Position numbers and translations under genes: made by a program
Shown here: in pieces, positions 5,480 through 55,063 of the stretch
How the letters are laid out: each line of letters starts with the position of its first letter
How positions within the stretch are numbered: the stretch's first letter is position 1
Notes under the pieces: generated by a model
Databases searched by the model: none
Seen by the model: only the letters and a program-made list of their open reading frames with translations
What the model was told of the DNA's origin: nothing
Source of the DNA: Crateriforma spongiae
GTDB taxonomy: Bacteria; Planctomycetota; Planctomycetia; Pirellulales; Pirellulaceae
Direction: 5' to 3'
Assembly (NCBI RefSeq): GCF_012290005.1
Contig: NZ_JAAXMS010000007.1
Location: 41,991 to 105,990 of the forward strand
Length of the DNA: 64,000 nt

Positions 5480-7315
5480 ATGTTCGCCATCCTGCATGCA
5501 AGATCGGGTCCCGACAAAGATCGAAATTACACCCTCGATCCGTCCCGACCTGCGCATATCGGACGTGGCACCAGCTGTGAAATCTTGCTGACCGATCCGA
5601 TGAGTTCGCGGTTCCATGCCGTCGTTTTTTTCGAAGACGGGAATTGGCATCTTCGCGACACCAGCAGCCGAAACGGTACCCTGGTCAATGGCCAGAAAGC
5701 GGACACCGCTCGGCTGCTGGACAAGTCGATCATCACGATCGGCGAAACGGATCTGCAATTGGTCGAAGGCGACGCGGAAGATGTCGAAGAATCATCGATC
5801 AAACAAACCTGGGTTGCCGATCCCGATGATCTGAAAGAACGCTTGCAGGATCGGGAGGTCGATCCGATCAACAAGCTGGCACAGACGGAATACCTACTGG
5901 ATTTGTACCAGTTAAGTCTGAATCTGATGTCGGGTTCCAGTGGCGTCGACACCATCGAAACGGTGCTGGAACTGTTGCGCGATCGCACCGCCGCATCGGG
6001 TGTCACCCTGTATCACGAAACACACGAAGGACGGCTGGTTCCGCAATCCAGCTATCCCAAGGATTCGCACAAACGCCTGCAACTTAGCCGACGGCTGATC
6101 CGACGCATTCAACGCAGCAGCGATCCGATGTGGATCGATCGCGAATACGATCCGAAGGTGCGTGGCGAAATCAAGGCGGCCGACGGCAAGCCATGGTCGG
6201 ATGTGATTGTTTGTCCGCTGTCCATCGACGACAACGCGATCGGAATGCTGGCGATGTTCCGTGATGAATCGGCGTTCGATCACCAGCATTATGATTTCGT
6301 CGTGGCGGCATCGCGGTTATTGGCGATCGGTTTGGTCCAATATCAAAAGACACATTCGTTGGCGGTCGAACGCGCCCACTTGGCCGAACGCAATGCCGAA
6401 GGCCCCGAGTTGATTGGTCAGTGTGACGCAATGACTCGGTTGAAAGAACGAATCACCCGGGTCGGTCGCGCCAGCGGATCGGTGTTGATCCGCGGCGAAT
6501 CAGGCAGCGGAAAAGAACTGGTCGCGCGGGCGGTTCATCGCGCCAGCCCGCGTGCCGATCGACCGATGTTGACGGTCAACTGTGCCGCGATTCCACAGGA
6601 TCTGATTGAAAGCCAGTTGTTCGGTCACAAGAAGGGTTCCTTCACCGGCGCCGATACCGATCACGTCGGTTGGTTCGAACAAGCCCACACCGGAACGCTG
6701 TTTTTGGACGAAATCGGCGAACTGACTTTGGAAGGTCAAGCGAAGCTGTTGCGAATCTTGGAAGGCCATCCGTTCTTGCCCGTCGGTGCGACCGAACAAG
6801 TGTTGGTGGATGTGCGGGTGATCGCGGCGACCAATCGCGACTTGGCTGAATTTGTCCGCGAAGGCCATTTCCGCGAAGACCTGTTTTATCGACTCAGCGT
6901 TTTTGAATTGTTCGTCCCACCGCTGCGTGAACGCGAAAGTGATCTGGATCTGTTGATCGATCACTTCTTGGCCCATTTCTGTCGCCAGCATGGTCGGCTG
7001 AAATTACGTTTGTCCGAAGACGCACGCGACCGGATGCACGAATACCCCTGGCCTGGGAACGTCCGGCAATTAAGGAACGTCATTGATAGTGCGGTTGTGA
7101 TGGCGGACGATCCGATGATCCAAGCCGACGATTTAGGGCTGCGCGACGCGGGGATCAGCCGCTTGGACACGCTGCGTATCGACGAATGGGAACGGCGATT
7201 GATCCGACAAGCTTTGGAAAAAAGCGAAGGCAGCGTTCCCAAGGCCGCCAAAATGTTGGGAATCAGTCGTGCGACGGCTTATCGAAAAATTGCCGAGTAT
7301 GACATCCAAAAATAG
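5480..7315 (+). CDS. Sigma-54-dependent transcriptional activator with FHA, GAF, AAA+ and Fis-type HTH domains
   Basis: N-terminal FHA (IGRGTSCEILLTDPMSSRFHAVVFFEDGNWHLRDTSSRNGTLVNG). AAA+ core with GESGSGKELVARAVH, ESQLFGHKKGSFTGA, LFLDEIGEL and VRVIAATNRDL. C-terminal HTH (AAKMLGISRATAYRKI). Confidence 0.9.
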   Translation: MFAILHARSGPDKDRNYTLDPSRPAHIGRGTSCEILLTDPMSSRFHAVVFFEDGNWHLRDTSSRNGTLVNGQKADTARLLDKSIITIGETDLQLVEGDAEDVEESSIKQTWVADPDDLKERLQDREVDPINKLAQTEYLLDLYQLSLNLMSGSSGVDTIETVLELLRDRTAASGVTLYHETHEGRLVPQSSYPKDSHKRLQLSRRLIRRIQRSSDPMWIDREYDPKVRGEIKAADGKPWSDVIVCPLSIDDNAIGMLAMFRDESAFDHQHYDFVVAASRLLAIGLVQYQKTHSLAVERAHLAERNAEGPELIGQCDAMTRLKERITRVGRASGSVLIRGESGSGKELVARAVHRASPRADRPMLTVNCAAIPQDLIESQLFGHKKGSFTGADTDHVGWFEQAHTGTLFLDEIGELTLEGQAKLLRILEGHPFLPVGATEQVLVDVRVIAATNRDLAEFVREGHFREDLFYRLSVFELFVPPLRERESDLDLLIDHFLAHFCRQHGRLKLRLSEDARDRMHEYPWPGNVRQLRNVIDSAVVMADDPMIQADDLGLRDAGISRLDTLRIDEWERRLIRQALEKSEGSVPKAAKMLGISRATAYRKIAEYDIQK

Positions 7316-18851: not shown

Positions 18852-20297
18852 ATGCAATCGTATCAAGCCGCATGTCGAATGATGACGTGGATGGTGCTGG
18901 TCGTTGGGTGCACGCCTGCGACCTTGGCGACGGGCAACAACACAGCGAATCCCGACGTTTTGGTAATCGTTGTCGATGACATGAACGACTGGGTTTCCCT
19001 GTTGGATCCCAACGCCCCCATCAAAACTCCTCATTTGAAACGTTTGGCAAAGCGGGGCGTGTCGTTCACGCGAGCCTACTGTGTTTCGCCGGCCTGCAAT
19101 CCATCACGGGCCGCGACTTGGACTGGACTGCGACCGTCAACCACCGGTGTGTACGGCAACAAGAGCGATTGGCGGCAAGCGGTTCCCAGTCGTCGGACGA
19201 TCATGCAGCAGTTCATGGCCGCCGGTTATGACGTACGTGGTGCGGGGAAAGTGTTTCATCATCATTTGGACGGAGCCTTTCACGATGGTGCTTCGTTCCA
19301 TGACTTCCAGCCGATGCGTCCGCAGTCGTATCCACGCGAAAAGCGGAACCAAGCGGATGAATACGGATCTCGGAACACCGATTGGGGGCCGTGGCCACCA
19401 CGTGAATCCGATGCGATCGATGTTCACACGGCTGACTATTGCATCGATGCGTTGCGTCAGCCTTCCGATGGAGGGCCACAGTTTCTGGTCTGCGGAATCT
19501 TCAAGCCGCATTCACCCTTCTTTGCTCCCGCGGAGTATTTTCCGGCTTACGATAACATCGGCCTTCCTGTCCGCGATCCCAACGATTGGAACGATCTTCC
19601 AGACGGTGCCCATTCGTTGTTGCAACAGAAAGCGTGGTTCTGGCGGGGCATGATGGACCTGGAACGTCGTGCGAAAGGTTCCTATCACGACTTCGTCCAG
19701 GCCTACGCAGCATGTGCTAGTTTTGCCGATGCGCAAATTGGCCGAGTCTTGGATGCACTGGATCAAAGTCCCCGCCGCAACAACACGATTGTGGTGCTAT
19801 GGTCCGATCACGGTTTCCATCTGGGCGAAAAGGACCACATCGAGAAGTTTGCGCTGTGGGAAAAGGCGACGCACATTCCCTTCATCGTGGTGGCCCCAGG
19901 AGTGGCGGTTCCCGGTGGGCGTTGTGATCGTCCGGTTGACATGACCGTGTTGTATCCGACCTTGCTTGAACTTTGTGGTTTGCCTGTCGATGCGCGGTGT
20001 GATGGAAACAGTGTGGTTCCTTTGTTGCGGGATCCTCAGGCCCGATGGGTTCGTCCGGCGTTGATGACGTACCTGCCCGGGAATCATGCCGTCCGAAGTC
20101 AGCGTTGGCGTTACATCCGATACGCCGATGGCAGCGAAGAACTTTATGACCACAACGCCGATCCAGACGAGTGGATAAATCTGGCCGGCGAACATCGCTA
20201 TGCACCCGTGATCAAATCACATCGACGGTGGATTCCAGAATCCGAAGCCAAACCGGTCGTTGATTTACAACGCGCCGGTAAGAAAGCCGGGCAATGA
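18852..20297 (+). CDS. Cys-type sulfatase
   Basis: VLVIVVDDMNDW and CNPSRAATWTG (C-x-P-x-R). WSDHGFHLGEK conserved region. Confidence 0.9.
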   Translation: MQSYQAACRMMTWMVLVVGCTPATLATGNNTANPDVLVIVVDDMNDWVSLLDPNAPIKTPHLKRLAKRGVSFTRAYCVSPACNPSRAATWTGLRPSTTGVYGNKSDWRQAVPSRRTIMQQFMAAGYDVRGAGKVFHHHLDGAFHDGASFHDFQPMRPQSYPREKRNQADEYGSRNTDWGPWPPRESDAIDVHTADYCIDALRQPSDGGPQFLVCGIFKPHSPFFAPAEYFPAYDNIGLPVRDPNDWNDLPDGAHSLLQQKAWFWRGMMDLERRAKGSYHDFVQAYAACASFADAQIGRVLDALDQSPRRNNTIVVLWSDHGFHLGEKDHIEKFALWEKATHIPFIVVAPGVAVPGGRCDRPVDMTVLYPTLLELCGLPVDARCDGNSVVPLLRDPQARWVRPALMTYLPGNHAVRSQRWRYIRYADGSEELYDHNADPDEWINLAGEHRYAPVIKSHRRWIPESEAKPVVDLQRAGKKAGQ

Positions 20298-20339
20298 CCA
20301 TCAATCTGTACCAGGCTCGGACCATCATAAGATCCAATC

Positions 20340-21278
20340 ATGCATAAGAACAGACTTTCTGGTTTGGTCGCAGCGACGTACACACCGTTGCGGGATGACG
20401 GAACGGTGAATTTGGATATCGTCGATCCTTTTGTGGAACACTTGTTCAACAACGGCGTCAGCGGTTTGTACGTCTGTGGCAGCACGGGTGAAGGCATGTC
20501 CCTGACGATCGCCGAACGAAAGGCCACCGCGGAAGCATTCGTACGGGCGTCCGGTGGTCGTCTGCCCGTCATTGTCCAGGTCGGCCACAATAGTCTGGCC
20601 GAGGCGAGAGGGCTTGCCGGGCACGCGCAGGAAATTGGCGCGGATATCATTTCGGCGACTTGCCCGTCCTACCATAAAGTCGGTTCGGCCGGCGGATTGA
20701 CTGATTGCATGATCGAGGTCGCCGGCGGCGCGCCGGATCTCCCATTCTACTATTACCACATTCCGGCCCTGACCGGTTCGAATCTGGATGTGCTTGAATT
20801 TTTGAAACGCGGCGGCGAAAAGATTCAAAATCTTGTCGGTTTGAAGTATACCGACACAAAGCTGTTCGAATTTCAGGAGTGTTGCGAACTGGATGACGGT
20901 CGATTTGATGTTGTTTGGGGATGTGACGAAATGTTGCTGGGTGCTTTGGCCACCGGAGCCACAGGTGCGATCGGCAGCACTTACAACATTGCCAGCGGCC
21001 TGTACCGCCGAATCATTAGCGCGTTCGACCAAGCCGATTTTGCACAAGCACGCCGGTGGCAATCGCTGTCAGTCAAGATGATTCGCACGATGAATGGCTA
21101 TCCGTTCCACCCCGCGATGAAAGCCGTTCTGGAGTTGCGCGGGTTTGCGATGGGTGGTTGCCGACTGCCGCAGGGACGTTTGACTTGCGACGAGATCATA
21201 CGATTGAAAGCCGAGTTGCAGTCAATTGGTTTTTTCGATTGGTCACAAGACGGTCCAAATCCCGGAACGACACAATGA
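20340..21278 (+). CDS. nanA: N-acetylneuraminate lyase-like class I aldolase (DapA/NanA family)
   Basis: GLYVCGSTGEGMSLT, FYYYHIPALTG and the VGLKYTD Schiff-base lysine context. The C-terminal half resembles animal and bacterial NPL/NanA rather than DapA. The genomic context (NanM-SSS fusion downstream) supports this. Confidence 0.7.
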   Translation: MHKNRLSGLVAATYTPLRDDGTVNLDIVDPFVEHLFNNGVSGLYVCGSTGEGMSLTIAERKATAEAFVRASGGRLPVIVQVGHNSLAEARGLAGHAQEIGADIISATCPSYHKVGSAGGLTDCMIEVAGGAPDLPFYYYHIPALTGSNLDVLEFLKRGGEKIQNLVGLKYTDTKLFEFQECCELDDGRFDVVWGCDEMLLGALATGATGAIGSTYNIASGLYRRIISAFDQADFAQARRWQSLSVKMIRTMNGYPFHPAMKAVLELRGFAMGGCRLPQGRLTCDEIIRLKAELQSIGFFDWSQDGPNPGTTQ

Positions 21279-21443
21279 CTGCCTTCTGGAAGACTGACCA
21301 ACCGACGAATCATGCCATCGCATGTCGGTCCGTTGCTTGTTGCGTTTCGAGCACTGGCATAGTGCCGGGACACCGCTCGTTCGCAGTAAGACGAAGCCTG
21401 TGTGTCGGTGCGATGATTTGGATGAACAGAATAGGCAGACAGC

Positions 21444-22943
21444 ATGAACGACCTTCGGTTTGATAATCAGGTTATCTCGAGTTCTTCCTTGGCGTATCGG
21501 CGGTATCGTGACAGTTGGGCCTACGCGATTTTGAGGCTGATTTGTGTGCCTGCGGTGATGCTGATGGTTGGGTCCAATCCGATCGTCGCGGAATCGGCAG
21601 ACACCAACGTGGTTCTGATCTTGATTGACGACCTGGGTTGGAAGGATCTCGGTTGTTACGGGAGCGACTATTACCAAACGCCCAATGTCGATCAGCTCGC
21701 CCGCGAAGGCATGAGGTTCACCAATGGGTATGCCGCGTGCAACGTCTGTTCTCCGTCGCGAGCCGCGATTGTTAGCGGCAAATACCCTGCTCGACTACTG
21801 TTGACGCAGTGGTTGCCGTCGGGGCGTTGGGATCCGCAAAAGATGCGACTTCGCGAAGGTCGCTACTTGGCCAATCTTCCGCTGGAGGAATTCACCGTCG
21901 CCGAGGCGATGCGAGATGCCGGTTACCGAACCGCTTTCATTGGGAAATGGCATTTGGGAACGGAGACTTACTACTATCCCGAGCACCAAGGTTTTGATGT
22001 CAATATTGCCGGTCGCGATTATGGGGCACCCGGCAGCTACTTTTATCCCTTTGAAGGTACTTGGAAGATTCCAACCACGGGAAAAGTGCTGCAAAAAACG
22101 TCTCCGCTTGCAGGCACCAAAGGCGACTATCTTCCGGATCGTTTGGCGGAAGAAGCTGAGGCGTTCATTCGCAAAAATGCCGAGCATCCATTCTTTCTGA
22201 TGCTGTCACACTACGCGCTGCACACCCCGTTGCAGGCGAAGCAGGAGAAGATCGACCGCTATCGTCAGATTCCAGAAAGCCAGCGGCAAGGAAAGCCCAC
22301 CTATGCGGCGATGGTGGAGAGCATTGATGAGAGTGTGGGACGCGTGATGGCGACGTTGCGGGACGTCGAGATCGATGACCAGACCCTGGTGATCTTTACA
22401 AGTGACAACGGTGGGAACGCGAATGTAACCAATCACAGTCCGCTGCGTGGGAACAAAGGGTCGAACTACGAAGGCGGTCTTCGTGTGCCGCTGATCATCA
22501 AATGGCCCGGAAAGACTCGCCCAGGTTCGGTGTCGGACGAACCTGTGATTGGAACGGACTTTTATCCAACCATCTTGGAAGCGACCGGCCAAGCGTTACG
22601 ACCGCATCAGCATGTGGATGGCGAAAGTCTGGTTCCCGTGCTGATGGAATCGGGCGGTTTGAATCGAACGGCCATTCATTGGCATTATCCGCATTACAAC
22701 CAGCATCCGTCGGCTTTCCCGTCCGGGGTGATTCGTGCAGGCGATTGGAAGCTAATTGAAGCCTACGAATCGCGAGAACTGTCACTGTACAACCTGGCCG
22801 ACGACCTTGGTGAAACCACAGATCTGTCGGAACTTCGGCCTGACAAGCGAGATGAGTTGTACCGACGGTTGAAAACTTGGCGCGACGCGGTTGGTGCGGA
22901 TCCGATGAGACCCAATCCGGAGTATCAGGAAGACCAACAGTGA
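21444..22943 (+). CDS. Cys-type sulfatase
   Basis: [29 protein letters not shown] and FTSDNGG. Its TGA stop overlaps the next gene's ATG (tgATG). Confidence 0.9.
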
Positions 22944-25576
22944 TGCGTCCCGCAATACTGCCCTGTGCCATCGTCCTGTTTTTCGTGCTTGCCGGCGCGG
23001 GCGATCCGAGCGTGTGTGCGGAAGACACGATCAGGCTTGATTGGCAAGAAATGCCATCAGTGCCGGACGAGCTAGGATTCGCCGGTCCGTTCGTCGGAAT
23101 TCATAATGATGCCTTGATTGTGGCCGGCGGTGCAAATTTTCCAAAACCGGTTTGGGAACAATCCAAGGTTTGGCACGATCGCGTCTTTGTGCTGACGCAA
23201 GCTGGTCTGAATGATGGCTGGAAAGAGGTCGGCAGACTGCCTCGGCCGATCGCATATGGTGCTGCGGTTTCGACGCAGATGGGCGTCGTTTGCATGGGCG
23301 GAAGTGACTCGCAGACCACTTATGACGACGTGTTTCTTTTGCGCTGGGACCCGGACACCGAAGCGATCGACGTCACATCGTTCCCAAAACTTCCCCAGCC
23401 GTGTGCGTATTCTACAGCGACGGTTATTGACGATGTGATCTATTTGGCCGGTGGCCAAAGCGGTCAATCGCTGGACACGGCGATGGCAAATTTTTGGTCA
23501 TTGGATTTGTCCCACAGGTCAAGCGGCGACGGCTGGCGATGGACCCAGCACCAAGTTTGGCCGGGGCCTGGACGAGCATTCAATCTGACCGTCCGGCAAC
23601 ACAACGGCTACAACGATTGCGTTTATGTCATCAGCGGACGCCGGCAGGATGGCGATCCGAACGATCCGGAGGATATTGAGTTCTTGCGGGATGTGTGGGA
23701 ATACAACCCGTCGACCGGTCACTGGCGTCAGCGTGCAGATGCACCACGATGTGTGATGGCGGGAACTGGCATTGGTGTGGGCCAAAGTCATGTCATGGTC
23801 TTGGGCGGTGCGACCGGGGAGTTGTTCTTTCAGGCGGATGAACTGAAAGATGATCATCCCGGATTTATCCGACAGGCTCTGGCGTATCACACGATCACTG
23901 ATACGTGGGTCCCTGCCGGTGAAACACCAATCAATCAAGTCACGACGACAGCGGTCAGGTGGGGTGACGCGATTGTCGTACCTAGTGGCGAAATTCGCCC
24001 GCGTGTTCGTACGCCGCGTGTTTTTCGTGTCAGCGTTGGTCGATCGACTGTTCGTTTTGGGGCCGTCAACTACATCGTGCTGTTCGGGTACCTGGCATTA
24101 ATGGTGGGAATCGGTCTGTATTTCGCACGAAAAAACAAAAGCACCGAAGACTATTTTCGTGGCGGAAAACAGATTCCGTGGTGGGCCGCCGGATGCAGTA
24201 TTTTTGCAACAATGTTGAGTTCGCTGACCTTTACAGGAATTCCATCCAAGTCGTTTGCGCAAGACTGGGTGTACGCCATTGGTAACTTGATGATTCCTGT
24301 CGTGGCGGTCATTGCCGTCTACATTGCGATGCCGTTCTTTCGAGGTATCGATGCGACCAGCGCATATGAATACTTGGAGAAGCGATTCAGTCGCTCCGTA
24401 AGATTATTCGGAAGCGCCAGCTTCACCCTGTTCCATTTGTTTCGCATGGCTGTTGTCATGTCTTTGACCGGGTTGGCCTTGTCGGTGGCCACACCGCTGA
24501 CACCCACACAATCGGTATTGCTGATGGGTGTTTTAAGCATTGTTTATTGCACAATGGGCGGCATCGAAGCGGTGATCTGGACAGATACGATTCAAACGGT
24601 CGTCTTGTTGGGTGGCGCAATGTTGGCTGTGGTGCTGCTGATCGCTGGTGTGGACGGTGGCGTGTCCGGGTTTTGGTCCGTCACCACGGAAGCGGACAAA
24701 TTCAAGCTTGCCAATTTTCACTGGGACATCACGAGCAGCCAAGTTGCTTTGTGGGTGGTTGTTGTGGGGGCCTTTGCCCAGAACATTTCGTCCTACACCG
24801 CGGATCAGGCCGTGGTCCAGCGTTACATGACCACCGCGGATACGCGATTGGCGGCGCGTTCGATTTGGACCAATGCGGTTCTGACGATTCCCGCGACGAT
24901 TTTGTTTTTCGGTATCGGAACCGCGTTGTTCGCTTTCTATCAATCGCATCCGCAAAAGCTGGATCCTACGATCACGACGGACCAAGTGTTTCCACTGTTT
25001 ATCGCTCGCGAGATGCCCGTTGGTTTTGCCGGACTGATTGTGGCGGGTATTTTTGCTGCGGCTCAGTCTACGGTTTCAACCAGCATGAATTCCACGGCAA
25101 CCGCGGTCGTGACCGATTTCATGCGTCCGAGGCAATTTTGCCGATCGGAGGCCGGGTATCTGGCCGCGGCAAGATGGTGCACCTTTTTGATCGGCGTCGT
25201 CGGTACGCTGCTTGCGATGGTGTTTGTGGACCCAGAGATCAAATCACTCTTTGACACATTTCTGCGTGTCATCGGTGTTTTTATGGGAGTGCTGGGCGGA
25301 CTGTTTGTCCTTGGCGCGTTGACGCGGCGAGCCAATGCAATCGGTGCGATGATCGGTGCCCTGGTCGGTGCCACGGTGATGTTTTGCCTGTGGAAATTTA
25401 CGCAGGTTAACGGATTTCTCTATACGGCAACGGGGATCACATCCTGTGTCGTGGTCGGGATGCTTAGCAGTCTGGTCTTTCAGCGGCCGGTTCAAGATTT
25501 GACCGGCTTGACCATCTACACCATGACTGAACCAGTCGACGCGCAACCGTTGTCCCGGGCGGAGGAATTGGGCTAG
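22943..25576 (+). CDS. Fusion of an N-terminal Kelch beta-propeller (NanM-like sialic-acid mutarotase) with a C-terminal sodium:solute symporter (SSS) permease
   Basis: Signal peptide [20 protein letters not shown]. Kelch/NanM-type repeats ([46 protein letters not shown]) run up to ~24050. From ~24060 there are ~13 TM helices with SSS motifs ([26 protein letters not shown]). Start trimmed to the ATG at 22943. Confidence 0.8.
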
Positions 25577-28500
25577 GAGCCCTCTTGGGTTTTGCCTTCC
25601 TCGAACGCCTTTTCAACGTCCTGGTAGGTCTGCACCATTCGATCCAACTGTTGTTGCAGTTGTTGCAAATCGGTGCCGCTTTCGATCTGGTTCTGCAGGA
25701 TCGGCCGCAGCCATTCTTGCATCAGATGAAATTGGCCTTTGACCAATTCGGCCAGTACGCGGGGAACCTTGTGCTGGACCAGTACCTTCTGGTCCGGCGG
25801 CGAAGCGGCTTGCTGTTGGGCGATTTGTTCCAAACGCTGTGTCGTCGCGTTGAGCGATTCGGAAAGCTGAGCTCCCGAAGTGACCAGTCCGTCTCGGATC
25901 GATTCGACACGTTGGTCCATGCGGCGTTGTTGGTCTTCATCACCGACCGCGACGGCACGACTGATCACGGCGCGGATCGATTCCAAGCCGTCGCGCATTG
26001 ATGCCAGTTGTCGCAGCAATTGCCCGGTCGTGTCGCTGTCGTCCAGGCCCGACATGCGGACGCTTTCGACGAAGGCGTATTTGATGCCGTCCCAACGTTC
26101 TTTCTGTTCTGGCGTCAGAACGCCCAACAGTTCGCGGAACTTCAGCATGTTCGCTTCGTTATCCGTGGTCAGCGTCTGGGCATCTTGTTCGTAACTGCTG
26201 ACGATCAGTGACTGCAATTCGCGATCGTTCATCACCGGCGCGACCTTTTCGGCGATCCGGTTCATGTTTCGATAGCTGCCTTGCAGTTTGAAAGGTGGTT
26301 CGGTTCGATAGGCGTCCGCTTGGGCGGCACTTTGGATGTAGGTTCGGTTGACTTTCAGGACGACGTCACGCACACGCAACAGTTTGCGAATGACTTCGTA
26401 CATGTCGTTCAGCTGGTCGGGGCTGATCTTGGTTTCCAGTTCGATCCCTTCCATCGAATCGCGCTGAGCCGCCGCGATGATGGCGCGGGCGTCCGATGGT
26501 GGCGCTGTCGATAGTGGTGCCAAAGTCGGATTGCTGGTCAAACAGTTTTCCAGATACGACATTTCGAATGCGTCGGAAGATTCACCGATAATTTCGCCCA
26601 AGTTGTATACGTCCGCACGGTTGGAAAGCATGTCGGGGATCTGGAACCGTTCGCCCGATTCGGTGTAGGGGTTGCCCGCCATGACAACCGCGACACGACG
26701 ACCGCGCAAATCATAGGTGCGTGTCTTGCCGTCGCGGACACCTTCGATCTTCCGCGTGGCATCGCACAAGGAGATGAACTTCTGCAGTAGTTCCGGATTG
26801 GTGTGCTGAATGTCGTCCAGGTACAGCATCACGTTGTCACCCATTTCCAGGGCTAAATTCAATCGCTGGACTTCTTCTCTGGCGGCGGCGTTGGGGGCTT
26901 CGGCGGGATCCAGCGAAGTGACACCGTGGCCGATCGCCGGGCCGTTGATCTTCATGAAGACGATCCCCAAGCGATTGGCGATGTATTCCATCAAGGTCGT
27001 CTTGCCGTACCCCGGTGGCGAGATCAATAGCAACAGCCCCATGCGATCGGTGCGTTTGCCGGCACCCGCAGCGCCGATTTGTTTGGCCAAGTTGTCACCG
27101 ATCAGCGGCAGATAGACTTCGTCCAGCAACCGGTTACGGACAAAACTGGTCAAGACCCTTGGTTTGAATTCATCCAAACGCATGGAGTCACGCGACTGTT
27201 CGACGATCCGGTTTTTCGATTCGTGTAGCCGCTGAAAACTCGGAACGACCGAACGGACGTAATGACTCATTCGATCGGTGAATTCGTGATAGTCCAACGA
27301 CAGCTTTCCGCCGCTGATTCGCGGATGGCTGCCGACGATTCCGGAAAGCGTTTGGGCCGTCTCTGCGGTGGCGGTTTTGAACGAATCCGCACCACCCCAC
27401 TGGATCAACAAGGCCAGTTCATTGCGGTGCGCGCTGGCTTTTTGACGATCGGAATCGGAAAGTGAATCGATATGGGCGTCCGCCCAGTTGCGGGCGAGAA
27501 CAAAGGCTTGTGTCGCCGAAACACTGGCTGTTTTTCCAGTGGTCGGCATTTTTCCTGCGGTTTGGAACTGCGTGTACAAGTCCGCCGCGTCACGGCTGAT
27601 CGTCGACTTGCGGACCGAGGTCGTCAGTTGGTCGAACAGGTAATCGGCCATCCGATGCGGTGTCAAAGTCGAATCAAACAGGGACGAAAATTCATCAAAT
27701 TGTGCGGTGATTGCGTCACACAATTGCTGGTGAAATTGACGCGCCGGTGTGGCATTTGGATACGCCTTGGCAAGTCGGCCGTAGCCGCCCACCCAATCAG
27801 AAAACGATTTCTGTGTGGCGGTGTCGGTTAGCTTCTTCAGCCACAGTAGTGACGCCGCACGGACCGTTGGCGAATGACGCAGCAACCCCAGTTGCCGATC
27901 CATCGCAAGCAGCGTGGTCAGCACGATCGCCGCATCATGATCGTGCACACCTTTTGCGTAACCTTCTTCGAAACGGCCCGCCATCTGTTTTTGGACCCAG
28001 GTGGTCCATTGCGGCAATGCCTCGGGATCGTCCGCATCAAGTTCGGTTGGAAGCGTTCCGCTGCTGATGGAACGAAACAGGTCGTACGCCAGGTATTCGC
28101 CACGATAGACATCGCGGTTTTCGCTGATCAATTCTTGATCCCAAAGATCGCGGGCATCTTCCAACGCCGCATCATGCAGGGGATCAAAGTACTGGGTGCC
28201 GGTCAAGTGAAGGCACATTTGACCGTCACGTAAGACGGTGGTCAGGTCCAGCGGTTGGGTATTGACGGCAAAACGCTTGTCGCCCAGACGGATGACTTCG
28301 CCGCCGTCCTCGTACAACTCGCGACGATCCTTCAATTGCCGAACGGCGTCTTCGCGAGCCGATTTCAGTCGTCCACGGAGGTCTTCGGCGCGGACGGCAT
28401 CGTTCAAGTCATCCAGCGAATCGACGATGTCGCGGACCTTTTGGACCATCAGATCGCCGGCAAAGTATGCGGCGATTTCCTCGGGAGTCTCGATCGTATC

Positions 28501-30819
28501 GATGCGCGACTTGATGCTTTGCAGGATCCGGTCCGCCGCAGTCGCCAGCGATTGTGCCCGCCGGTTTTGCTTTTCGACCAGCGCGACCTTGCGGCTTTCA
28601 AACGCCGCGTAGATCTCTTCCCGCCGAGTCGCCAATTGTGGAATGAAGTCGTCGAATTCCGCAAACCGGCCTTCCAGTTCCTCCAGTTGCAACATGACCT
28701 TGGTCAGGTACTGGTCACACTTGGCGGGCGTGTCGCAGATGTCCAGGTATCCGGCCGTGCTTTGGGCCAGCAACTTCATCTGTGACGCAAATTCCGCACG
28801 ACCCTCGACCGATTGAAGGTCCTGGATTCGGGCCTTTAGCGTACTGCGGACGCGATTGACCGACGCCAGCACGTCGCCGATGTTGTCGACGATGGTCGTG
28901 CGTTTGGTGGTGTCGTCGATTTTGAGATTGCTGACGGTTTCGGTCAGCATTTCCAGGTGTTCGGCCGTTTGGTCGATGCGTTCCTGGATCTCTTTTGCGG
29001 CTGCTACGGTTTCCGTTTGCTGGATCGTCGCATCGATCTCTGAAACGCGTTGCGTGTAGGGGGCCAGTGCGTCGTTGCCCAAAAGAAAATCGACACAACG
29101 TCGGCTGATCCGTTCGGCTTTTTCGACGACAGAGGTTTCCAGTGATTGCACCCGAGATTCGTCGACGTATCGCAAGTCTTTCAGGCCCAATGCGGCGGCC
29201 CGTTGACGTCGCAGTTGCGACAGGACGTCGACGAAATCATCGATCGATTCGAAACGACTGCGGTCAACCGTTTTCAGCAGTTCGTCGATCGCTTTGGCAA
29301 CACGTTTGGTCGCAGATTCCGTTTCGTTTTTTGCGCGGACGACCTTTTCGAATTCTTCGATCGCCGTGTTGGCCGCTTGGCGGATTTGAATCAGCGGCTG
29401 ATTCAGTCCCTGTGTTTCCGCTTTATCGATCCAAAAATACGAATCCAGGATGTCGCCAGTCTTCTTGGCAATGTCGACGTACAGACCTTCATAGCTGTCG
29501 TCTTTGTCGATCAGTTGCAGCACTTCGCTGCATTCGGACATGCCCCGAACGATTTCTTGGTTGCCGATTTTGAACAGTAGCGAATCGCTTTGGTGTTCGG
29601 CGATGAAGTCGGGGCCGGTAAACGGAGTCTGCCAGACCTGGATCGCGTGGTGTTTTTGCGGCTGGTCGTTCCCGGTGAAGCAGACCATTTCGCCACGCTG
29701 GAAAAACGTCTGGCCATGGCAGACCAACGGCGTGTCCACGGTTTGGTTGATCAGGTTGTAGCGAAGCTGGATGTAGGTGCCGCTTTCCGGGTTGTAGAAC
29801 AAGTACAGAAAGTCTTCGCCGTTGGGTGATGCGACGGTGCGCTGGAAACGCATGTCGATCAAGCCGTGATCGAAGCGTTTGAATTGACCCGTCTGCAGAT
29901 AATAACCGCCGGGGAAAATCAGCCCCTGGTCGCTGGGCAACATCACACAAGCGTGTTCGATTTCGTCCAGACGCATCGCCTGGCCCAATTTTCCGTTGAA
30001 CACAAAATGGCGGAACGTGTTTTCTTGGTAGGGTTTGATTCGGATCAGAATCAGGTTGCCGACGACCGCGTAATAGACCTCGGCGTCGTCCAGGGTTTGA
30101 TCCGGATTTTCGACCGGTTCGGCCAGAATGCCTTCGCCGCTTTCGGTGTTGTCTTCAATCTTGATCGTCAGGTCGCCACCGACCGTTTCGACGAACACCC
30201 GATCATCCAGACTGATGTGCGGATGTTTTCCGTAGACGTGTTGGTCGCGGGTGGTCCGCGTCCATCGGAATTCGTGCTGCGCGGGGTCACGGACTTCGTG
30301 TTCGCTGCGGTTGTCGACATAGACCAAGCGGTCATCGTCGATCCGCCATTTGAACGATTTGATATCTCGCGGCGTTTTGCCGACGCGAAAGACCATGTGC
30401 AGCAATGGCCCGTCACGAAAAAAGCGGGCGAAGGTCGTGCCTTTATAGAATCGATACAGTTCGGCAAAGTCGCTGTGGAATCGATCGTCGCCGATCAAGT
30501 CCAGCGATTCGGTGTGGAACTGGTGGTCATCGAATCGATAGGCGGAAAACACGTCGCCGATTTCGGTTTCCAGTTTCAGGCCGAACTGGACGTTGTACCC
30601 GAACAAAAAGCGGTCGCCGACGCTGATCAGATCACGCGGGACACAATTGTGTGTGGTGGTGACGCGTTCGGTCGTCACCAATTTCGTTTCGATGTTGCCA
30701 AAGACTTCGCTGCGTGAATCGTTCAAACGACGCAGTCGGTCACGCAGGTCCTTGGCGGCATCGCGGATGCGTTGACGCAGGACTTCGTACGTCCCGGCGG
30801 CCAGCTGGGTGTCGGTCAT
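25573..30819 (-). CDS. Giant (1748 aa) uncharacterised protein with an N-terminal beta-rich domain, a ~450-aa coiled-coil/helical region and a C-terminal AAA+ ATPase
   Basis: One uninterrupted ORF. Walker A SPPGYGKT (nt 26998..27021), Walker [10 protein letters not shown] (~26806..26832) and [29 protein letters not shown] (sensor/arginine region). Residues ~440-900 are heptad-rich and helical. I recognised no nuclease, protease or TM segment. Confidence 0.8.
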
Positions 30820-30950
30820 GGCACTAGGCGTTCATCGATGGCTGGATGGTTGATGATGGAGCCACCGCGACGGCCGTCATATCGCAGCGGCATGGCCGGC
30901 TGCGATGGTGGGTGTGGCGCGCGTGTGGTGTCCGTGGGAACCGCAAGGAA

Positions 30951-33014
30951 TCAAGATTTCGACAGCATTCGGCCGGCTTTTTGATCCGCGATGTTGGCGG
31001 TTCCCGCCATCGACAGCAGACTGGTCAACTGGCTGCGGACATCATCGGTCGACGCCATGCCCATCATTTTGGCGATCAGGGCGGCGATCGACAGGTCTTT
31101 GACGCCATCGGTGTCCAGGTTGAATTGGCTGATCAATTCGGAAAGTTGGTCACGGAAGTATTCGGCGTTGCCGTCAAAGAAGGTGTCTTTGATATCGGTC
31201 GCAACTTTGCTGTTGTAGACGAACCGGTCGATGGCTTTGCCGCCCTTGACCGCAGTTGTGATCTGATCGAAGAACTCGCCGTCGCCACCGACGATATCGA
31301 TGCGTGCCGCCTTCAGCGCGTCGGCGACTACACCGGCTTGGCTTTCGGCGATGCCGCGTTGTGCATCGATCGCAGCGATTTCGACTTGCTTGGTCTTTTC
31401 CAAGTTCAGTTTGAATTCTTCGTGGTCCTTGCCGACGCCGTCCAGCAATTTCATGGCTTCGGCCTTTTCGGTGATGCCGGTGGCTTCGGCGTGATAGGTT
31501 TCGCTCATGACCTTGGCTTCGGCCAAACCTTCCTTTTCGATCGCGACGGCTTTGGCTTCTTGTACCTTGGCTTCGGCCAGTCCGGCGGCCGCGGCGGTTG
31601 CTGTTTCGCCTTCGGCCAGCATCTTCGCACCTTCGGCGTCCTTGGCTGCCGCGTCGCGTTTGGCTTCTGCTTCGATGCGGATCTTTTCAGCCAACAGTTC
31701 ACTGGCGTCACGTTCGGCCTGGGCCAGTTTGGTTTGGCGAATCAATTCTTGTTCGGCGGCCATTTCCGCAGCGGTGACTTCGACGCGTTTCAGACGATCG
31801 GCGGCGGCGTGTTCTTCGGTGTCCTTGATGCGTTCCTGTTCTTCGACGACCGCACGTTCGACGGCGACGCGTTCGCGGATCACTTCTTGGATGTTTCGCT
31901 TTTCGACTTCGATCGCTTTTTCTTTCTCGACATCAGCGACGCCGACCAAACGCATCCGTTCGGTGGCTTCCAAGTCACGGTCACGGGTGACACGTTCCAG
32001 TTCCACCGCATCGGTTTTTTCTTTGTTCCGCTGGGCGACCAAGACCTGCCGTTCTTTGTTTTCGGTCGCGATGCCGATTTCTTCTTCGGTCGCGATGCGG
32101 GCACGTTCGGCTTCTAAACGTTGTTCTTCTTCGACTTTGGCGGCTGCGGCGTTTTCGCGAGCGGTGATTTCGGCGATTTCACGCTGTTGTTTCTCGACCG
32201 CTTCGACGCGTTGTCGTTCCAGTTCCAGAATGGTTTCTTCCGCCTCGACGTCTTGCTTCTTCAGCGTCTTTTCTTTGTCGCGGGTGAACTGGTTTTCCTT
32301 GACCTTTTCATCGGCGGTCAATTCGGTGATCTTTTTGATGCCTTCGGCGTCCAGAATGTTGTTGGGCGAAAGCAATTCGATCGGCGTTTGTTCCAGATAA
32401 TCGATCGCGGCGTCGTCCAGCCGGTAACCGTTCAAGTCGGTTCCGATGACTTTCAAAATTTCTTCTTTGAACTTGTCCCGTTGGTCGTACAAGTCGACGA
32501 AGTCGAACTGCTTGCCGACGGTCTTCAGGGCTTCGCTGAACTTCGCATCAAACAATTCACGCAGCGTGTCGATTTGCGCACAGCGTTTCGCACCGATCGA
32601 CTGGGCCACCTCCTTCATTTCTTCCGGTGTTTTATCGACACGCACGAAGAACGCGACTTTGATGTCGGCACGGATGTTGTCTCTACAGATCAAGCCTTCG
32701 CTGCCCTGACGATGAATCTCGAATGACTTCAGCGTCAGGTCCATGAATTCGTGTTGGTGCAGCAGCGGGACGACGAACATGCCGTCGCCGGTGGCCACTT
32801 TCAGGCCGCCGGAACCACTGCGAACCAGGGCGGTATCGGGACCGACCTTGATGTAACACTTTTTGAAGATCGCCGCGGCGATGAAAATGCTGATTGCCAG
32901 AAAGCCGATCAAGATGATCGCGGCATCGGCGGCAGCGCTGTTGGTGATCAATTGCGCAAGCATGGTGGAGTCCAACAAGGGTGTTAAATCGACAATGGGC
33001 AATGGGAAAGTCAT
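30951..33014 (-). CDS. Flotillin-family SPFH/band-7 protein (YqiK/FloT-like)
   Basis: N-terminal TM (AAIILIGFLAISIFIAAAIF). SPFH core (VRSGSGGLKVATGDGMFVVPLLHQHEFMDLTLKSFEIHRQG...IRADIKVAFFVRV). Long Ala/Glu-rich flotillin coiled coil. Start trimmed to the ATG at 33014, which lies 13 nt after the upstream TAA and has taAGGTG 9 nt upstream. Confidence 0.9.
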   Translation of the reverse strand: MTFPLPIVDLTPLLDSTMLAQLITNSAAADAAIILIGFLAISIFIAAAIFKKCYIKVGPDTALVRSGSGGLKVATGDGMFVVPLLHQHEFMDLTLKSFEIHRQGSEGLICRDNIRADIKVAFFVRVDKTPEEMKEVAQSIGAKRCAQIDTLRELFDAKFSEALKTVGKQFDFVDLYDQRDKFKEEILKVIGTDLNGYRLDDAAIDYLEQTPIELLSPNNILDAEGIKKITELTADEKVKENQFTRDKEKTLKKQDVEAEETILELERQRVEAVEKQQREIAEITARENAAAAKVEEEQRLEAERARIATEEEIGIATENKERQVLVAQRNKEKTDAVELERVTRDRDLEATERMRLVGVADVEKEKAIEVEKRNIQEVIRERVAVERAVVEEQERIKDTEEHAAADRLKRVEVTAAEMAAEQELIRQTKLAQAERDASELLAEKIRIEAEAKRDAAAKDAEGAKMLAEGETATAAAAGLAEAKVQEAKAVAIEKEGLAEAKVMSETYHAEATGITEKAEAMKLLDGVGKDHEEFKLNLEKTKQVEIAAIDAQRGIAESQAGVVADALKAARIDIVGGDGEFFDQITTAVKGGKAIDRFVYNSKVATDIKDTFFDGNAEYFRDQLSELISQFNLDTDGVKDLSIAALIAKMMGMASTDDVRSQLTSLLSMAGTANIADQKAGRMLSKS

Positions 33015-33027
33015 CGGCAAAGGCACC

Positions 33028-33774
33028 TTAATCTTGGGCCGCGTTTGCATCGGCGGCCGTGACGGTGTAGATGCGACGGTCGGAATCAAAATCAATAATC
33101 CGCACGATGCCGTCACGTGGGACCGTGCCTTCGGTCGTGCGGATGTTCAACAGCAACGGCGCCGCGTCGGTTGTGAATTCGCCTTGGCCAAAGGTCGGCG
33201 AAACTTCACTGGTGGAAACGCGACACGTCTTGCCGATCAATCGAGCGGCTTCGTACGTCGGACCGCGCCGCGACAGAAAACCAAGTCGATCGGTCAGAAC
33301 CTTGGTCGCCAGTGTTGCCATGACCACGTTGCGGGTCGTCAGCAACAGTGTCGGGATCAGCGCCGGTGCGAAATGGTCTTGGTCATAGCTGTACCACATC
33401 GCGTAACTGACGGCCCAAAACAATGACGTGAACACCGAACACCAAATCACCAAAGGGATTTTGCCCAGGTTCAGCCAACGGACCGTCATCGCACCCAAAC
33501 CGCTGACCGTGCCACCATCGGCGGCGGATTGCCAGGCGCCATCAGCGGCGGGAATCTCCGTTTCCATCGAAGCGTCGGCGTCACCGAGATCAATGTCGCC
33601 GGCGTCCATTTCCATTCCATCCGGATCGATGTCGGCACCCAGTCCGAAATCAAAGTCCAGCAGGCCGAGCGCAACGACAACGGCATAGATCAGCATCACG
33701 CCGACCATGACCGATGCCGGCCAGACCGGTCCGACGAACAGTCGTTCCAGGAATTGGATGATCGATTCGGACAT
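33028..33774 (-). CDS. YqiJ/NfeD-like inner-membrane protein (DUF1449-type N-terminus, C-terminal NfeD OB-fold)
   Basis: TM helix, an acidic linker (DFDFGLGADIDPDGMEMDAGDIDLGDAD), 2-3 further TM helices, then a C-terminal beta-rich region (GKTCRVSTSEVSPTFGQGEFTTDAAPLLLNIRTTEGTVPRDGIVRIIDFD). Its position directly upstream of the flotillin gene mirrors yqiJ-yqiK and nfeD-floT pairs. Confidence 0.65.
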   Translation of the reverse strand: MSESIIQFLERLFVGPVWPASVMVGVMLIYAVVVALGLLDFDFGLGADIDPDGMEMDAGDIDLGDADASMETEIPAADGAWQSAADGGTVSGLGAMTVRWLNLGKIPLVIWCSVFTSLFWAVSYAMWYSYDQDHFAPALIPTLLLTTRNVVMATLATKVLTDRLGFLSRRGPTYEAARLIGKTCRVSTSEVSPTFGQGEFTTDAAPLLLNIRTTEGTVPRDGIVRIIDFDSDRRIYTVTAADANAAQD

Positions 33775-33872
33775 GGAAATTCGAAAAACGGCGGGGATGA
33801 AGGGGCGGTCTGGGATCGTGGGCATGGTCCCGGCGGATCCTTGGCGCAAAATCCTTCACGAAAGCCAGAATT

Positions 33873-33888
33873 GGCCCCGGTGGTGCCA
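33873..33888 (-). promoter_or_regulatory. Candidate sigma-54 (-24/-12) promoter upstream of the YqiJ-like/flotillin operon
   Basis: The minus strand reads TGGCACcaccgggGCc. The -24 hexamer is perfect and the GC dinucleotide is at the canonical GG-N10-GC spacing, but the -12 TT is replaced by GG. It lies ~100 nt upstream of the ATG at 33774. It is the only intergenic TGGCAC with correct spacing that I found. Confidence 0.3.
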
Positions 33889-51072: not shown

Positions 51073-51958
51073 TTGATTGTTCCGTTTCGCGACCGGCTGG
51101 ACTTAGCAGTCCTCGCAACACCAACCAATCGATTTGTCGTGAGACAAGATCTGCTGAACCGTCCAGCCGTGCAAACACGGCGCCGCCCGGATGTGACGAA
51201 CCCCAGTTGTGTTTGTATTCAATTTCGGGCTGATCGGGCTGGATCAGCACGCCGTCCCGCACCGTTCCACGGCTTCCGCCGGTAAAAATCGGCTCGTCCC
51301 AATACCAACTGGTCTCCGTTTGCACCAAAGGATCAAACGCTTTTTCACCGAAAGCGATGGTCTGACTCAAGCCGTCAATGATGTGCGCCGGTCGCAATGC
51401 TTCGGGATAATTCAGCATAATCATCCCATTGCCGGCATAATCGGTTTTCGCCCAAGCGCGACCGCCGGCATCGTATTCCCCGTTTTCATCATCGACCGGC
51501 GGCAGCGGTTCGCCTCGCGACCGACTGGGACAACGAAACAGCGGTCCCGCGTTTTCGACACGGATGCTTTGATGTGATTCCACTTGCTCCACCATGGGCA
51601 AAATCGCATAGGCCCAACTGCCGGTCTGTTTTGTGGGATGCGCAAACGGTATCCCAACGCCCCACCAAAACCGTTGATCGATCTGTCGATCGAAGGTTCC
51701 GACCCTGACCATTTCACCGTCGGTATTCTTGATGCGGCTTTCGCCATCGTCGCCACCGTTACCCGGCAGGTATTTCATCCGGTCGATGTGCATTTGAATC
51801 CCCAATCCCAACTGTCGGGATTGGCTGAGGCATTGCGCGCGTCTTGCCGCCTCGCGCGCCGATTGCGTCGCCGGTGCCAGCAACGATATCAGAACGGTCA
51901 CGATCGAAATCACCACCAACAATTCGATCAGGGTAAAACCACTACGGCGATACATCAT
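51065..51958 (-). CDS. DUF1559 / prepilin-type N-terminal cleavage-methylation protein (H-X9-DG family)
   Basis: GFTLIELLVVISIVTVLISLLAPATQSAREAARR. C-terminal HPGGAVFARLDG is H-X9-DG. Confidence 0.85.
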   Translation of the reverse strand: MMYRRSGFTLIELLVVISIVTVLISLLAPATQSAREAARRAQCLSQSRQLGLGIQMHIDRMKYLPGNGGDDGESRIKNTDGEMVRVGTFDRQIDQRFWWGVGIPFAHPTKQTGSWAYAILPMVEQVESHQSIRVENAGPLFRCPSRSRGEPLPPVDDENGEYDAGGRAWAKTDYAGNGMIMLNYPEALRPAHIIDGLSQTIAFGEKAFDPLVQTETSWYWDEPIFTGGSRGTVRDGVLIQPDQPEIEYKHNWGSSHPGGAVFARLDGSADLVSRQIDWLVLRGLLSPAGRETEQSNE

Positions 51959-54047: not shown

Positions 54048-55063
54048 GCCTGCGATACTGATCGATTGATCAGCGCTGAACGATTGAAGATGCCTCGGCC
54101 GTCTCTCAAGCGGTAAGCCATTTCGGAACACCACACAGCCGGCGGCAGGCCAATCAACGAACGAGCCAGTGAAGCATTGGCGGCAATCAGGTCGGTCATC
54201 GAACACCCACCGCCGTTGGTCGCTACACGATCGTATCCGATTCGATCCATGGTTTGTCCGCAAACACGCTCCACCGGCTCCGCGATGGCGGCACGATTTC
54301 GCCGCCAAGCGGACACCCGGGCAAGGTCGGGCGGATTCAATGCCGTCTGCTTCCAGGCCCGTTCGCGTTCGGGAAAGCAAGAGGCATCGTGGACGCTAGG
54401 CCGCTGAAGCGTCGAAAGAATCGATTCGTCCGCCGACAAACCCAAGAATGTCAGTGCATCGGCAAGTTCCTGTTCGGGACGCGTGACCAACCGTTCGAAA
54501 CGCACCCAGCAAATACGTCGTGGCCAACGTTCGGCCGCGTCCAACAAGCGACGCTGTGTTCGGTCCCAAAGCAATGCCGCACCTCGCACGCTGGTTCGCA
54601 GCCACGGAACGCCCGTCAGGCTTAACGCCACATCCCGTGGATCACGCACGACGAATATCCAACGGCTATCGGGAAAGACTTCATCGATCCAGTCCAGACG
54701 GTACGAGTACTCAGGAGTCTTGTCGCCCAACAAACATTGCCGCTGCGGCGCGTGCCCGACATCGGTCGTCGACACGCGGTTCCGATCGATTCCGTGACTT
54801 GGATAAAGTCGATGCAAGTAGGCATAGATCTCATCAACTCGGCGATCGCCACGCAGCATGTCGGCGGGAAAGGCGACCGAACAATCCGATTCAATCCGTC
54901 GAAGCGTCTTTCGTCGGACCCATCGGGGGCAACCGTGATATAAGAAAAACAGCTTCAGCTCCGGAGGCACCCAAGCATGCGGGTGTCGGTTCAACAACAC
55001 CTGCAGGAAAGTGGTTCCGGATCGCGGGCAACCGACGACGAAGAATGGAAACTGGCTGGACAT
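54035..55063 (-). CDS. Sulfotransferase-family protein
   Basis: 5'-PSB loop FFVVGCPRSGTTFLQ and 3'-PB region FVVRDPRDVALS. Start trimmed to the ATG at 55063; upstream in-frame ATGs exist. Confidence 0.75.
   Translation of the reverse strand: MSSQFPFFVVGCPRSGTTFLQVLLNRHPHAWVPPELKLFFLYHGCPRWVRRKTLRRIESDCSVAFPADMLRGDRRVDEIYAYLHRLYPSHGIDRNRVSTTDVGHAPQRQCLLGDKTPEYSYRLDWIDEVFPDSRWIFVVRDPRDVALSLTGVPWLRTSVRGAALLWDRTQRRLLDAAERWPRRICWVRFERLVTRPEQELADALTFLGLSADESILSTLQRPSVHDASCFPERERAWKQTALNPPDLARVSAWRRNRAAIAEPVERVCGQTMDRIGYDRVATNGGGCSMTDLIAANASLARSLIGLPPAVWCSEMAYRLRDGRGIFNRSALINRSVSQACSS

Follow-up and report, generated by a model that had tools for sequence, protein, structure and literature searches.

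The three-gene locus

The window analysed here is a 64-kb stretch of DNA from the planctomycete Crateriforma spongiae. On its minus strand lie three co-directional open reading frames (ORFs) that code for a small membrane protein, a flotillin and a giant ATPase, homologous respectively to BacC, BacD and BacE of Pseudomonas aeruginosa. That this locus belongs to a module conserved in several bacterial phyla is, in our view, nearly certain. In the order of transcription the elements are as follows.

33028..33774, minus strand: gene for a YqiJ/DUF1449-like small membrane protein of 248 amino acids (aa); BacC homologue
30951..33014, minus strand: gene for a flotillin (SPFH/Band 7) of the YqiK type, 687 aa; BacD/PaFlo3 homologue
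30820..30950, minus strand: spacer of 131 nucleotides (nt) between the flotillin and giant genes
25573..30819, minus strand: giant ATPase gene with an ATG start, 1748 aa; BacE (PA3728/PA14_16190) homologue, labelled 'DNA repair ATPase'

An earlier note on this DNA had placed three ORFs at these coordinates, separated by gaps of 13 and 131 nt, with a Shine-Dalgarno sequence over the first stop codon. The ORFs are confirmed and the remaining details are exact: the YqiJ-like and flotillin genes are 13 nt apart, the flotillin and giant genes 131 nt, and TAAGGTG overlaps the stop codon of the YqiJ-like gene. The start assigned to the YqiJ-like gene agrees with that of the gene caller. For the flotillin gene another in-frame ATG occurs at 33050, which would lengthen the product to 699 aa, and which is the gene caller's choice in a 98%-identical relative. 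No terminator-like hairpin was recognized on the minus strand in either the 13-nt or the 131-nt spacer, by a scan based on a generic consensus that is not validated for planctomycetes. At its distal end the giant gene meets a convergent gene for a NanM-sodium-solute-symporter (SSF) fusion, the stop codons of the two genes overlapping (25573-25575 and 25574-25576); exactly at this junction the plus strand has a short GC hairpin and, after it, a T-run (25570-25582).

Conservation of the module

The giant protein contains the Pfam domain DUF3686, which among 1.84 billion representatives is found in 707 clusters at 50% identity, and which is carried by at least 600 GTDB species genomes. Many of the 150 matches listed are shorter fragments; the members that look complete are mostly 1600-1900 aa long. 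We have surveyed the gene neighbourhood of the 80 best-scoring DUF3686 loci, with hidden Markov models built from annotated plasmid and chromid records and a scan of the six-frame ORFs of 84 loci. The upstream statistics refer to the 73 loci that offer 3.2 kb or more of sequence before the giant gene, and the downstream statistics to the 66 that offer 3.2 kb or more after it.

The giant gene is preceded, on its own strand, by a flotillin gene in 70 of the 73 loci (96%), and a YqiJ-like gene precedes the flotillin gene in 68 (93%). Genes for PspA (45/73, 62%) and for a CesT/YjfI-like protein (42/73) are also present at many loci. As an internal control we counted SPFH genes on the other side of the giant gene and found none (0/66); given 70/73 upstream versus 0/66 downstream, a chance adjacency of the flotillin and giant genes is excluded. 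Synteny of the giant homologues with flotillin and YqiJ-like genes, which the earlier note had proposed as a test of its claim, is in this way enriched across phyla: the same gene order recurs in Planctomycetota, Bacteroidota, Actinomycetota, Deinococcota, Pseudomonadota and other phyla. In other genomes the spacing at the junction of the flotillin and giant genes is 4-100 nt, values that derive from stop-to-stop ORFs and are thus lower bounds.

A tblastn search of plasmid and chromid records detected DUF3686 in Hymenobacter, Streptomyces, Nonomuraea, Proteus, Deinococcus, the Pseudomonas fluorescens plasmid pQBR103, Vibrio, Halomonas and Photobacterium. The Hymenobacter, Streptomyces, pQBR103 and Deinococcus records (4/4) all show a small membrane protein, an SPFH or 'hypothetical' protein of ~650-720 aa, and the giant protein; the P. 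aeruginosa locus is a further annotated example of the same order. PspA is absent from the module loci of Streptomyces and Deinococcus, and likewise from all of the planctomycete loci that carry the module (8/8), which have the three-gene form. No PspA or CesT-like gene was found anywhere in the 64-kb window. On pQBR103, a P. fluorescens megaplasmid, the module stands behind a full yjfI-pspA-like polyamine-linked set that includes a gene of the glutathionylspermidine-synthase family.

Two further genes were considered in connection with the module. A gene for an M50/CBS peptidase upstream of it in the window was rejected as a fourth component, as it stands beside the module in no other locus. 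At the P. aeruginosa locus a gene of the PLD family (bacF; L087:15260-15952, PLDc_2 E = 7e-30) directly follows the giant gene, an arrangement seen in proteobacterial versions of the module.

Domain organization of the giant ATPase

The recognizable elements of the giant protein, from the N- to the C-terminus, are listed below.

29434..30750, minus strand: DUF3686 (PF12458), aa 24-462, 631.5 bits, E = 8e-190
28822..29073, minus strand: DUF7902 (PF25472), aa 583-666, 99.8 bits in Pfam
26230..27147, minus strand: AAA+ module, aa ~1225-1530
26998..27021, minus strand: Walker A motif SPPGYGKT, aa 1267-1274
~26917-26943, minus strand: position of pore loop 1, GHxVxS, aa 1293-1301
26806..26826, minus strand: Walker B motif LYLDDIQ, aa 1332-1338, with DD where DE is usual

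The presence of DUF3686, DUF7902 and a C-terminal AAA+ module in one protein of ~1600-1900 aa identifies the product as a member of the family called 'DNA repair ATPase'. It is 98% identical to a Crateriforma conspicua protein of that name and 41% identical to the P. aeruginosa protein over 93% of the length. The remark in the earlier note that large proteins so annotated occur next to flotillin genes was right: this is the NCBI label in several phyla. Also the architecture described there (a beta-rich N-terminal domain, helices and a single AAA+ module) is broadly borne out by Pfam and by AlphaFold2 (AF2) models, and the two Walker motifs named there are present, Walker A at exactly the coordinates given.

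In the AF2 model of aa 1-480 (predicted local distance difference test, pLDDT, 85) a long N-terminal helix is followed by ~30 beta strands (aa 46-397) and then by helices; the strand domain of DUF3686 appears beta-propeller-like in this model. The region between aa 480 and 835, which includes DUF7902, is presumed to be helical or coiled-coil on the basis of its composition and of the published description. A second model, covering aa 835-1600 (pLDDT 79, predicted template modelling score 0.63), displays a small beta unit, a helical domain of ~300 residues, a canonical AAA+ alpha/beta core with its lid, and additional helices. No transmembrane (TM) segment is predicted in the giant protein, and no MIT-like domain was found in it by Pfam.

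The module scores 29.4 bits against the Pfam AAA family PF00004 (cutoff 21.2) and has the features that define an AAA+ ATPase: K1273 in Walker A, D1335-D1336 in Walker B, N1383 as sensor 1, R1401 in an NRAD motif as candidate arginine finger, and the alpha/beta plus lid fold. R1517, in the sequence GSYRNMN, is a candidate sensor-2 residue, and a pre-sensor-1 beta hairpin (aa ~1357-1370) is visible in the AF2 model just before the sensor-1 strand. K1273/T1274, D1335-D1336, N1383, R1401 and R1517 are all absolutely conserved, both in an alignment of sequences from five phyla and in a larger one of 223 sequences. Two traits shared by these homologues are unusual. Walker B is DD, never DE, in all of them (223/223, several phyla), and the loop after beta2, at the site of pore loop 1, reads GHxVxS, invariant or nearly so, and is without an aromatic residue throughout the 223 homologues. 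Members of the classical AAA clade (Vps4/p97/katanin) lack a pre-sensor-1 hairpin and a sensor-2 arginine and have an aromatic pore loop 1 and a second region of homology with two arginines. Here the hairpin and the candidate sensor-2 arginine are present and the aromatic residue is absent, and the module cannot be counted in that clade.

Structural comparison places MoxR proteins (CbbQ, NorQ), dynein, midasin and ClpA/B at the top of the matches to the AAA+ module. These matches are weak and scattered over clades, with MoxR, dynein and Clp types slightly ahead of Vps4/p97, and since the differences are small any clade assignment of the module is tentative. Matches of the giant protein to PDB sequences are confined to the surroundings of the P-loop, the giant homologues give weak matches to Pfam AAA_5, and in NCBIfam the giant protein shows P-loop-level similarity to RuvB (25 bits, cutoff 282-299) and to Cdc48, far under threshold.

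The flotillin and its YqiJ-like partner

The full-length flotillin of the window has no Pfam match even at E = 10. Its first 257 residues taken in isolation match Band_7 (PF01145) with 49.5 bits (cutoff 23.6), and a BLASTP alignment with Escherichia coli YqiK extends over 448 aa with 31% identity (E = 5e-50). A direct search of PDB sequences produced no useful match. The protein has a single N-terminal TM segment (aa 33-51, mean Kyte-Doolittle hydropathy 2.6), an SPFH region at aa ~56-198, a stretch rich in E, A, K, R and Q between aa 260 and 520, and a conserved C-terminal region that ends at ~aa 600. We have also considered whether the C-terminus might be a docking tail specific to flotillins linked to the ATPase; among 72 homologues the sequence varies over the last ~90 residues, while what is conserved looks like the C-terminus of YqiK, and the idea was abandoned.

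The failure of Band_7 on full-length proteins is not peculiar to the window. It was observed with all three of the full-length flotillins tested (30951-33014 of the window, Hymenobacter L003:6622-8790 and P. aeruginosa PA3729 at L087:7785-9851), and the passage of the isolated N-terminal domain over the threshold was seen with the window flotillin, the one tested as a fragment. It seems that the E/A/K/R/Q-rich (alanine- and glutamate-rich) coiled coil triggers the Pfam bias filter in the full-length proteins, and the Hymenobacter and Deinococcus flotillins may be annotated as hypothetical for the same reason, that Band_7 fails on them at full length.

The assignment of the small membrane protein to YqiJ is less firm. 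It scores 19.7 bits against Pfam YqiJ_N, under the cutoff of 23, and four of five homologues have no Pfam match, the fifth giving a sub-threshold match to NfeD. When a profile of six such sequences is aligned with E. coli YqiJ by hhalign, the probability is 87% (E = 4e-6, 130 columns), and the alignment spans TM2-TM3 and the C-terminal domain. TM segments are predicted at aa 21-39 and 106-124, with probably a third around aa 140-160 from hydropathy, and the C-terminus is predicted to be a soluble beta domain. With its gene directly upstream of the flotillin gene, several TM segments and a soluble C-terminal domain, this protein has the marks of a flotillin partner. Overall, the families named in the earlier note (YqiJ/NfeD-like, flotillin, single AAA+ module) hold, the YqiJ assignment being the weaker one, at the level of profiles.

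Relationship to described systems

The operon to which these genes belong has been described before. In a comparative genomics study of the PspA network, Ravi et al. (2024, PMC11237479) defined a branch with an operon for a CesT/Tir-PspA pair, a band-7/flotillin protein, a novel AAA+ ATPase and YqiJ, for which ATP-dependent membrane remodelling was proposed; abbreviated operons, reduced to the flotillin and the YqiJ protein with the ATPase at times added, were reported to occur widely and may act together with a PspA encoded elsewhere. The window locus is such an abbreviated operon, in its three-gene form. In P. aeruginosa the full operon was named bacABCDEF (PA3732-PA3727; bacC, bacD and bacE being PA3730-PA3728) by Wallart et al. 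(2024, PMC10948618), who obtained products across every junction by reverse-transcription PCR, so that PA14_16190 (bacE, the giant gene) and PA14_16200 (bacF) are joined to the operon, and who found BacB-F increased 6- to 13.5-fold in a bacA mutant. Co-transcription and co-induction of the genes are thus known for P. aeruginosa. In this species PA3728-PA3732 are also up-regulated in all the samples of a transcriptome study with two virulent phages that were infected (PMC12041424), and PA3731, the PspA-like protein, accumulates in biofilm and after osmotic shock, a PA3731 mutant being defective in biofilm formation, swarming, rhamnolipid production and virulence (Macé et al. 2008, PMC2587700). 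The giant protein of P. aeruginosa falls in a cluster (P0334) of 3,222 member sequences; at the one locus inspected the order is DUF2170 - PspA - 213 aa - 688 aa - giant - PLD, between hom/thrC-type genes on one flank and recJ and M4-peptidase genes on the other.

The window and bacABCDEF have in common the order and orientation of their YqiJ-like, flotillin and DUF3686/DUF7902/AAA+ genes, which are orthologous. The window differs in that the CesT-like (bacA), PspA (bacB) and PLD-like (bacF) genes are missing, in that the sigma-54 promoter proposed for bacA has no convincing counterpart, and in that the planctomycete version is known here from its genes alone. The earlier note had spoken of an uncharacterised system. 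This stands insofar as the system is conserved and the ATPase biochemically unstudied (no biochemistry of a BacE-type ATPase is contained in the papers found on the operon), but not for the operon itself, already described and named in the two studies of 2024. The claim of a single conserved unit is upheld by the synteny and, in P. aeruginosa, by the common transcript. A literature search with 'DUF3686' found no paper; the relevant work came to light under PspA and flotillin terms and PA locus tags.

With regard to the promoter, the 276 nt that precede the YqiJ-like gene contain a sigma-54-like motif, TGGCACCACCGGGGC (33874..33888, minus strand), in which 8 of the 10 positions of the consensus are matched and GG is correctly spaced from GC. 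Of the loci scanned, the window and the relatives 98% identical to it have this motif, and no other does. In view of the 8/10 match and of its absence outside near-identical strains we do not admit it as evidence for a promoter like that of bacA; this weak motif is probably not significant. The product of a gene at 5480-7315 on the plus strand, ~26 kb from the module, is a sigma-54 enhancer-binding protein whose input domains are FHA and GAF; no link between this gene and the module was found.

Other systems offer more partial parallels. In E. coli yqiJ-yqiK and Bacillus subtilis yuaF-floT, as in the window, a gene for a small multi-TM partner precedes the flotillin gene. The E. coli pair is not followed by a giant ATPase gene, yqiK having sibD/ibsD and hldE downstream, and its flotillin is shorter (553 aa in YqiK versus 687 aa in the window). 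The HflK/C-FtsH complex is a precedent for an SPFH assembly that works with an AAA+ ATPase at the membrane. FtsH, however, is a membrane-anchored AAA protease of the classical clade and the HflK/C cage is periplasmic, whereas the giant protein is soluble, has no protease domain and has other fold neighbours, and the bulk of the flotillin is expected to be cytoplasmic. MoxR, dynein and midasin (CbbQ, NorQ, Mdn1) provide the best structural matches to the ATPase core, and the helical region next to the motor recalls lever and stalk designs; on the side of the differences, the giant protein carries one AAA+ module and not a chain of six, no VWA partner gene accompanies it, and the resemblance in sequence covers the P-loop region only. 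With Vps4/ESCRT-III and PspF/PspA the common element is an AAA+ ATPase in control of a membrane-bound polymer, and in many genomes the module is indeed linked to PspA. The analogy with Vps4/ESCRT-III drawn in the earlier note survives as functional logic, but not as a statement on the ATPase itself, with a fold nearer (by a small margin) to MoxR/dynein/Clp, a DD Walker B and a non-aromatic pore loop.

Proposed mechanism and alternative interpretations

We lean, by somewhat better than even chances, towards the interpretation that the locus is the bacCDE-equivalent core of a flotillin/AAA+ branch of a phage-shock-like membrane-stress network, in which the ATPase remodels the flotillin scaffold. 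If the solved SPFH assemblies (the HflK/C, flotillin and QmcA-YbbJ cages cited in PMC10936438, PMC13000311 and PMC13086221) are a guide, flotillin molecules probably join into a cup or cage at the cytoplasmic side of the inner membrane, and the YqiJ-like partner would be anchored beneath this cup, at its base. The giant protein might dock on the scaffold through the N-terminal helix and the propeller-like DUF3686 and form oligomers by way of the AAA+ module; under membrane stress it would then use ATP, which it would bind and slowly hydrolyse, to assemble, reshape or release this flotillin scaffold or the scaffold's clients, with the movements driven by the nucleotide passing along the helical stalk to the scaffold. 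The DD Walker B, the non-aromatic pore loop and the MoxR/dynein/Clp-type fold suggest a slow switch or lever of the MoxR/dynein/midasin kind, acting through the long helical stalk, rather than a threading unfoldase such as Vps4 or ClpB. Where CesT-like and PspA proteins are present, as in Bacteroidota and Pseudomonas, the machine probably acts also with the ESCRT-III-like polymer of PspA; in planctomycetes it may act by itself or together with a PspA whose gene lies at another place in the genome. The presence of the flotillin at 96%, of YqiJ at 93% and of PspA at 62% of the loci makes the flotillin more likely as the primary partner, and in Bacteroidota and Proteobacteria PspA would be an additional client.

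Several observations weigh against this interpretation. Deletion of PaFlo3, the P. aeruginosa flotillin, reduces biofilm by ~20% and has no other phenotype (PMC13086221), and with so nearly silent a deletion the system is conditionally important at most. The giant gene has no flotillin gene within 10 kb at two loci (L010, L016), which seem real exceptions; at a third, L073, the flotillin gene is probably beyond the 4.2-kb flank, as in its relative L062. In several Bacteroidota loci 1.4-5 kb of unrelated genes intervene between the flotillin and giant genes (L054:4680-9860, including duplicated ORFs of ~300 aa; L062:3545-7350; L036:7400-9950; L022:7590-9935), and hence tight translational coupling is not universal and the module tolerates interruption. 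The rate of hydrolysis could be very low, given the DD in Walker B, and the scaffold-docking role given to DUF3686 is purely our inference.

The most serious of the alternatives, which we nonetheless regard as unlikely, takes the PspA polymer as the true substrate of the ATPase, with flotillin and YqiJ as a recruiting platform, the giant protein as a functional analogue of Vps4, and the planctomycete PspA encoded elsewhere. The occurrence of PspA (45/73) and CesT-like (42/73) genes in the same operon, as in P. aeruginosa, speaks for it, as do the ATP-dependent remodelling and the distant PspA that Ravi et al. envisage for the abbreviated operons. A 2025 review (PMC7619361) remarks that bacteria appear to have no Vps4-like regulator of PspA, and an SPFH protein of B. 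subtilis is reported to be needed to bring PspA to the membrane (PMC8581546). The distribution of the genes points the other way, as PspA is missing at the eight planctomycete module loci, at those of Streptomyces and Deinococcus and in the whole window, while the flotillin is nearly always there; the non-aromatic pore loop and DD Walker B are unlike Vps4, and Pfam detected no MIT-like domain. We consider much less probable an anti-phage or conflict system, the other function entertained in the earlier note, with the flotillin as sensor of membrane perturbation and the giant ATPase as effector. The induction of the P. aeruginosa operon by two virulent phages (PMC12041424) would be equally expected of a classical phage-shock response. 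The copies of the module on large plasmids and the PLD-family protein added in some proteobacterial operons would suit a conflict system as well; on the other hand, the window neighbours are metabolic and housekeeping genes with no defence island, and the 3,222 members and the hom/thrC-type and recJ/M4-peptidase flanks (at the one locus inspected) make the P. aeruginosa copy look like a stable chromosomal element and not a mobile island. In PADLOC-DB v2 the three proteins have no significant match: the giant protein gives PDC-M14B at E = 7.8e-4, on the DUF7902 stretch, and mad8 at E = 0.074, and the other two give nothing. Nor does Pfam recognize a nuclease, protease or pore-forming effector domain in the giant protein. 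The conflict-system alternative is therefore unsupported by PADLOC and by the neighbouring genes.

To a genuine role of the giant protein in DNA repair, with an incidental flotillin adjacency, we attach almost no credence. The Pfam/NCBI name, the weak P-loop-level similarity to RuvB and the presence elsewhere in the window of RecQ-like, SF1 helicase and DnaE-type genes might suggest it, but the RuvB similarity is limited to ~50 residues around Walker A, and those DNA-metabolism genes are not beside the module in other genomes. The protein has no DNA-binding or nuclease domain and no split ABC head of the SMC/RecN type: Pfam and NCBIfam gave no match to SMC/RecN/Rad50-type proteins, and the sole nucleotide-binding module is a contiguous AAA+ near the C-terminus. 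The linkage to membrane-protein genes at 70/73 loci is likewise difficult to reconcile with incidental adjacency, and our literature search found no paper that ties the family to repair. The name 'DNA repair' appears to be an annotation artefact.

Returning to the remodelling of the flotillin scaffold, its broader implications can be stated as follows. Bacterial flotillins and PspA are widely studied as proteins that organize and repair membranes, and a giant AAA+ protein genetically tied to the flotillin/YqiJ pair in at least 600 species, among them P. aeruginosa, in which biofilm and virulence are affected by the operon, is an obvious candidate for what drives their assembly and disassembly. 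We put forward as a possibility, and a doubtful one, that the DUF3686 ATPase is the missing energy-consuming regulator of flotillin cages (and of PspA/ESCRT-III-like polymers where these are present), with the flotillin as primary client. It is an equally tentative proposal that it does so as a non-Vps4 AAA+ machine that builds or dismantles membrane-repair scaffolds by means of a propeller-plus-stalk lever, flotillin primacy being displayed by the planctomycete form. The window is in itself another example of an operon that specialists in the comparative genomics of the phage-shock-protein (PSP) response would expect. What the survey adds is that the genes almost always found with that of the ATPase are those for the flotillin and the YqiJ-like protein rather than for PspA, that nothing supports the name 'DNA repair', that the AAA+ fold matches are weak and mixed, with a DD Walker B and a non-aromatic pore loop across 223 homologues, and that Band_7 fails on the three full-length flotillins tested, information useful for annotation and for the design of experiments.

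Other features of the window

The plus-strand block at 18852-25576, which ends at the giant gene, encodes a sulfatase, a DHDPS/NanA-like enzyme, a second sulfatase and the NanM/Kelch::sodium-solute-symporter fusion of 899 aa. It is absent from two 98%-identical relatives (L001 and L002), in which an SSF gene of 288 aa adjoins the giant gene, and it looks like a strain-specific island for the use of sialic acid or sulfated glycans. At the other end of the window the stretch from 56 to 62 kb has a GC content of 0.50-0.53, down from ~0.58. Six sizeable ORFs (51942-54380, 55277-56218, 56890-58125, 58157-59776, 60376-61545 and 61555-62814) have no Pfam match at 1e-4, and the region 51942-62814 may be a foreign or lineage-specific segment.

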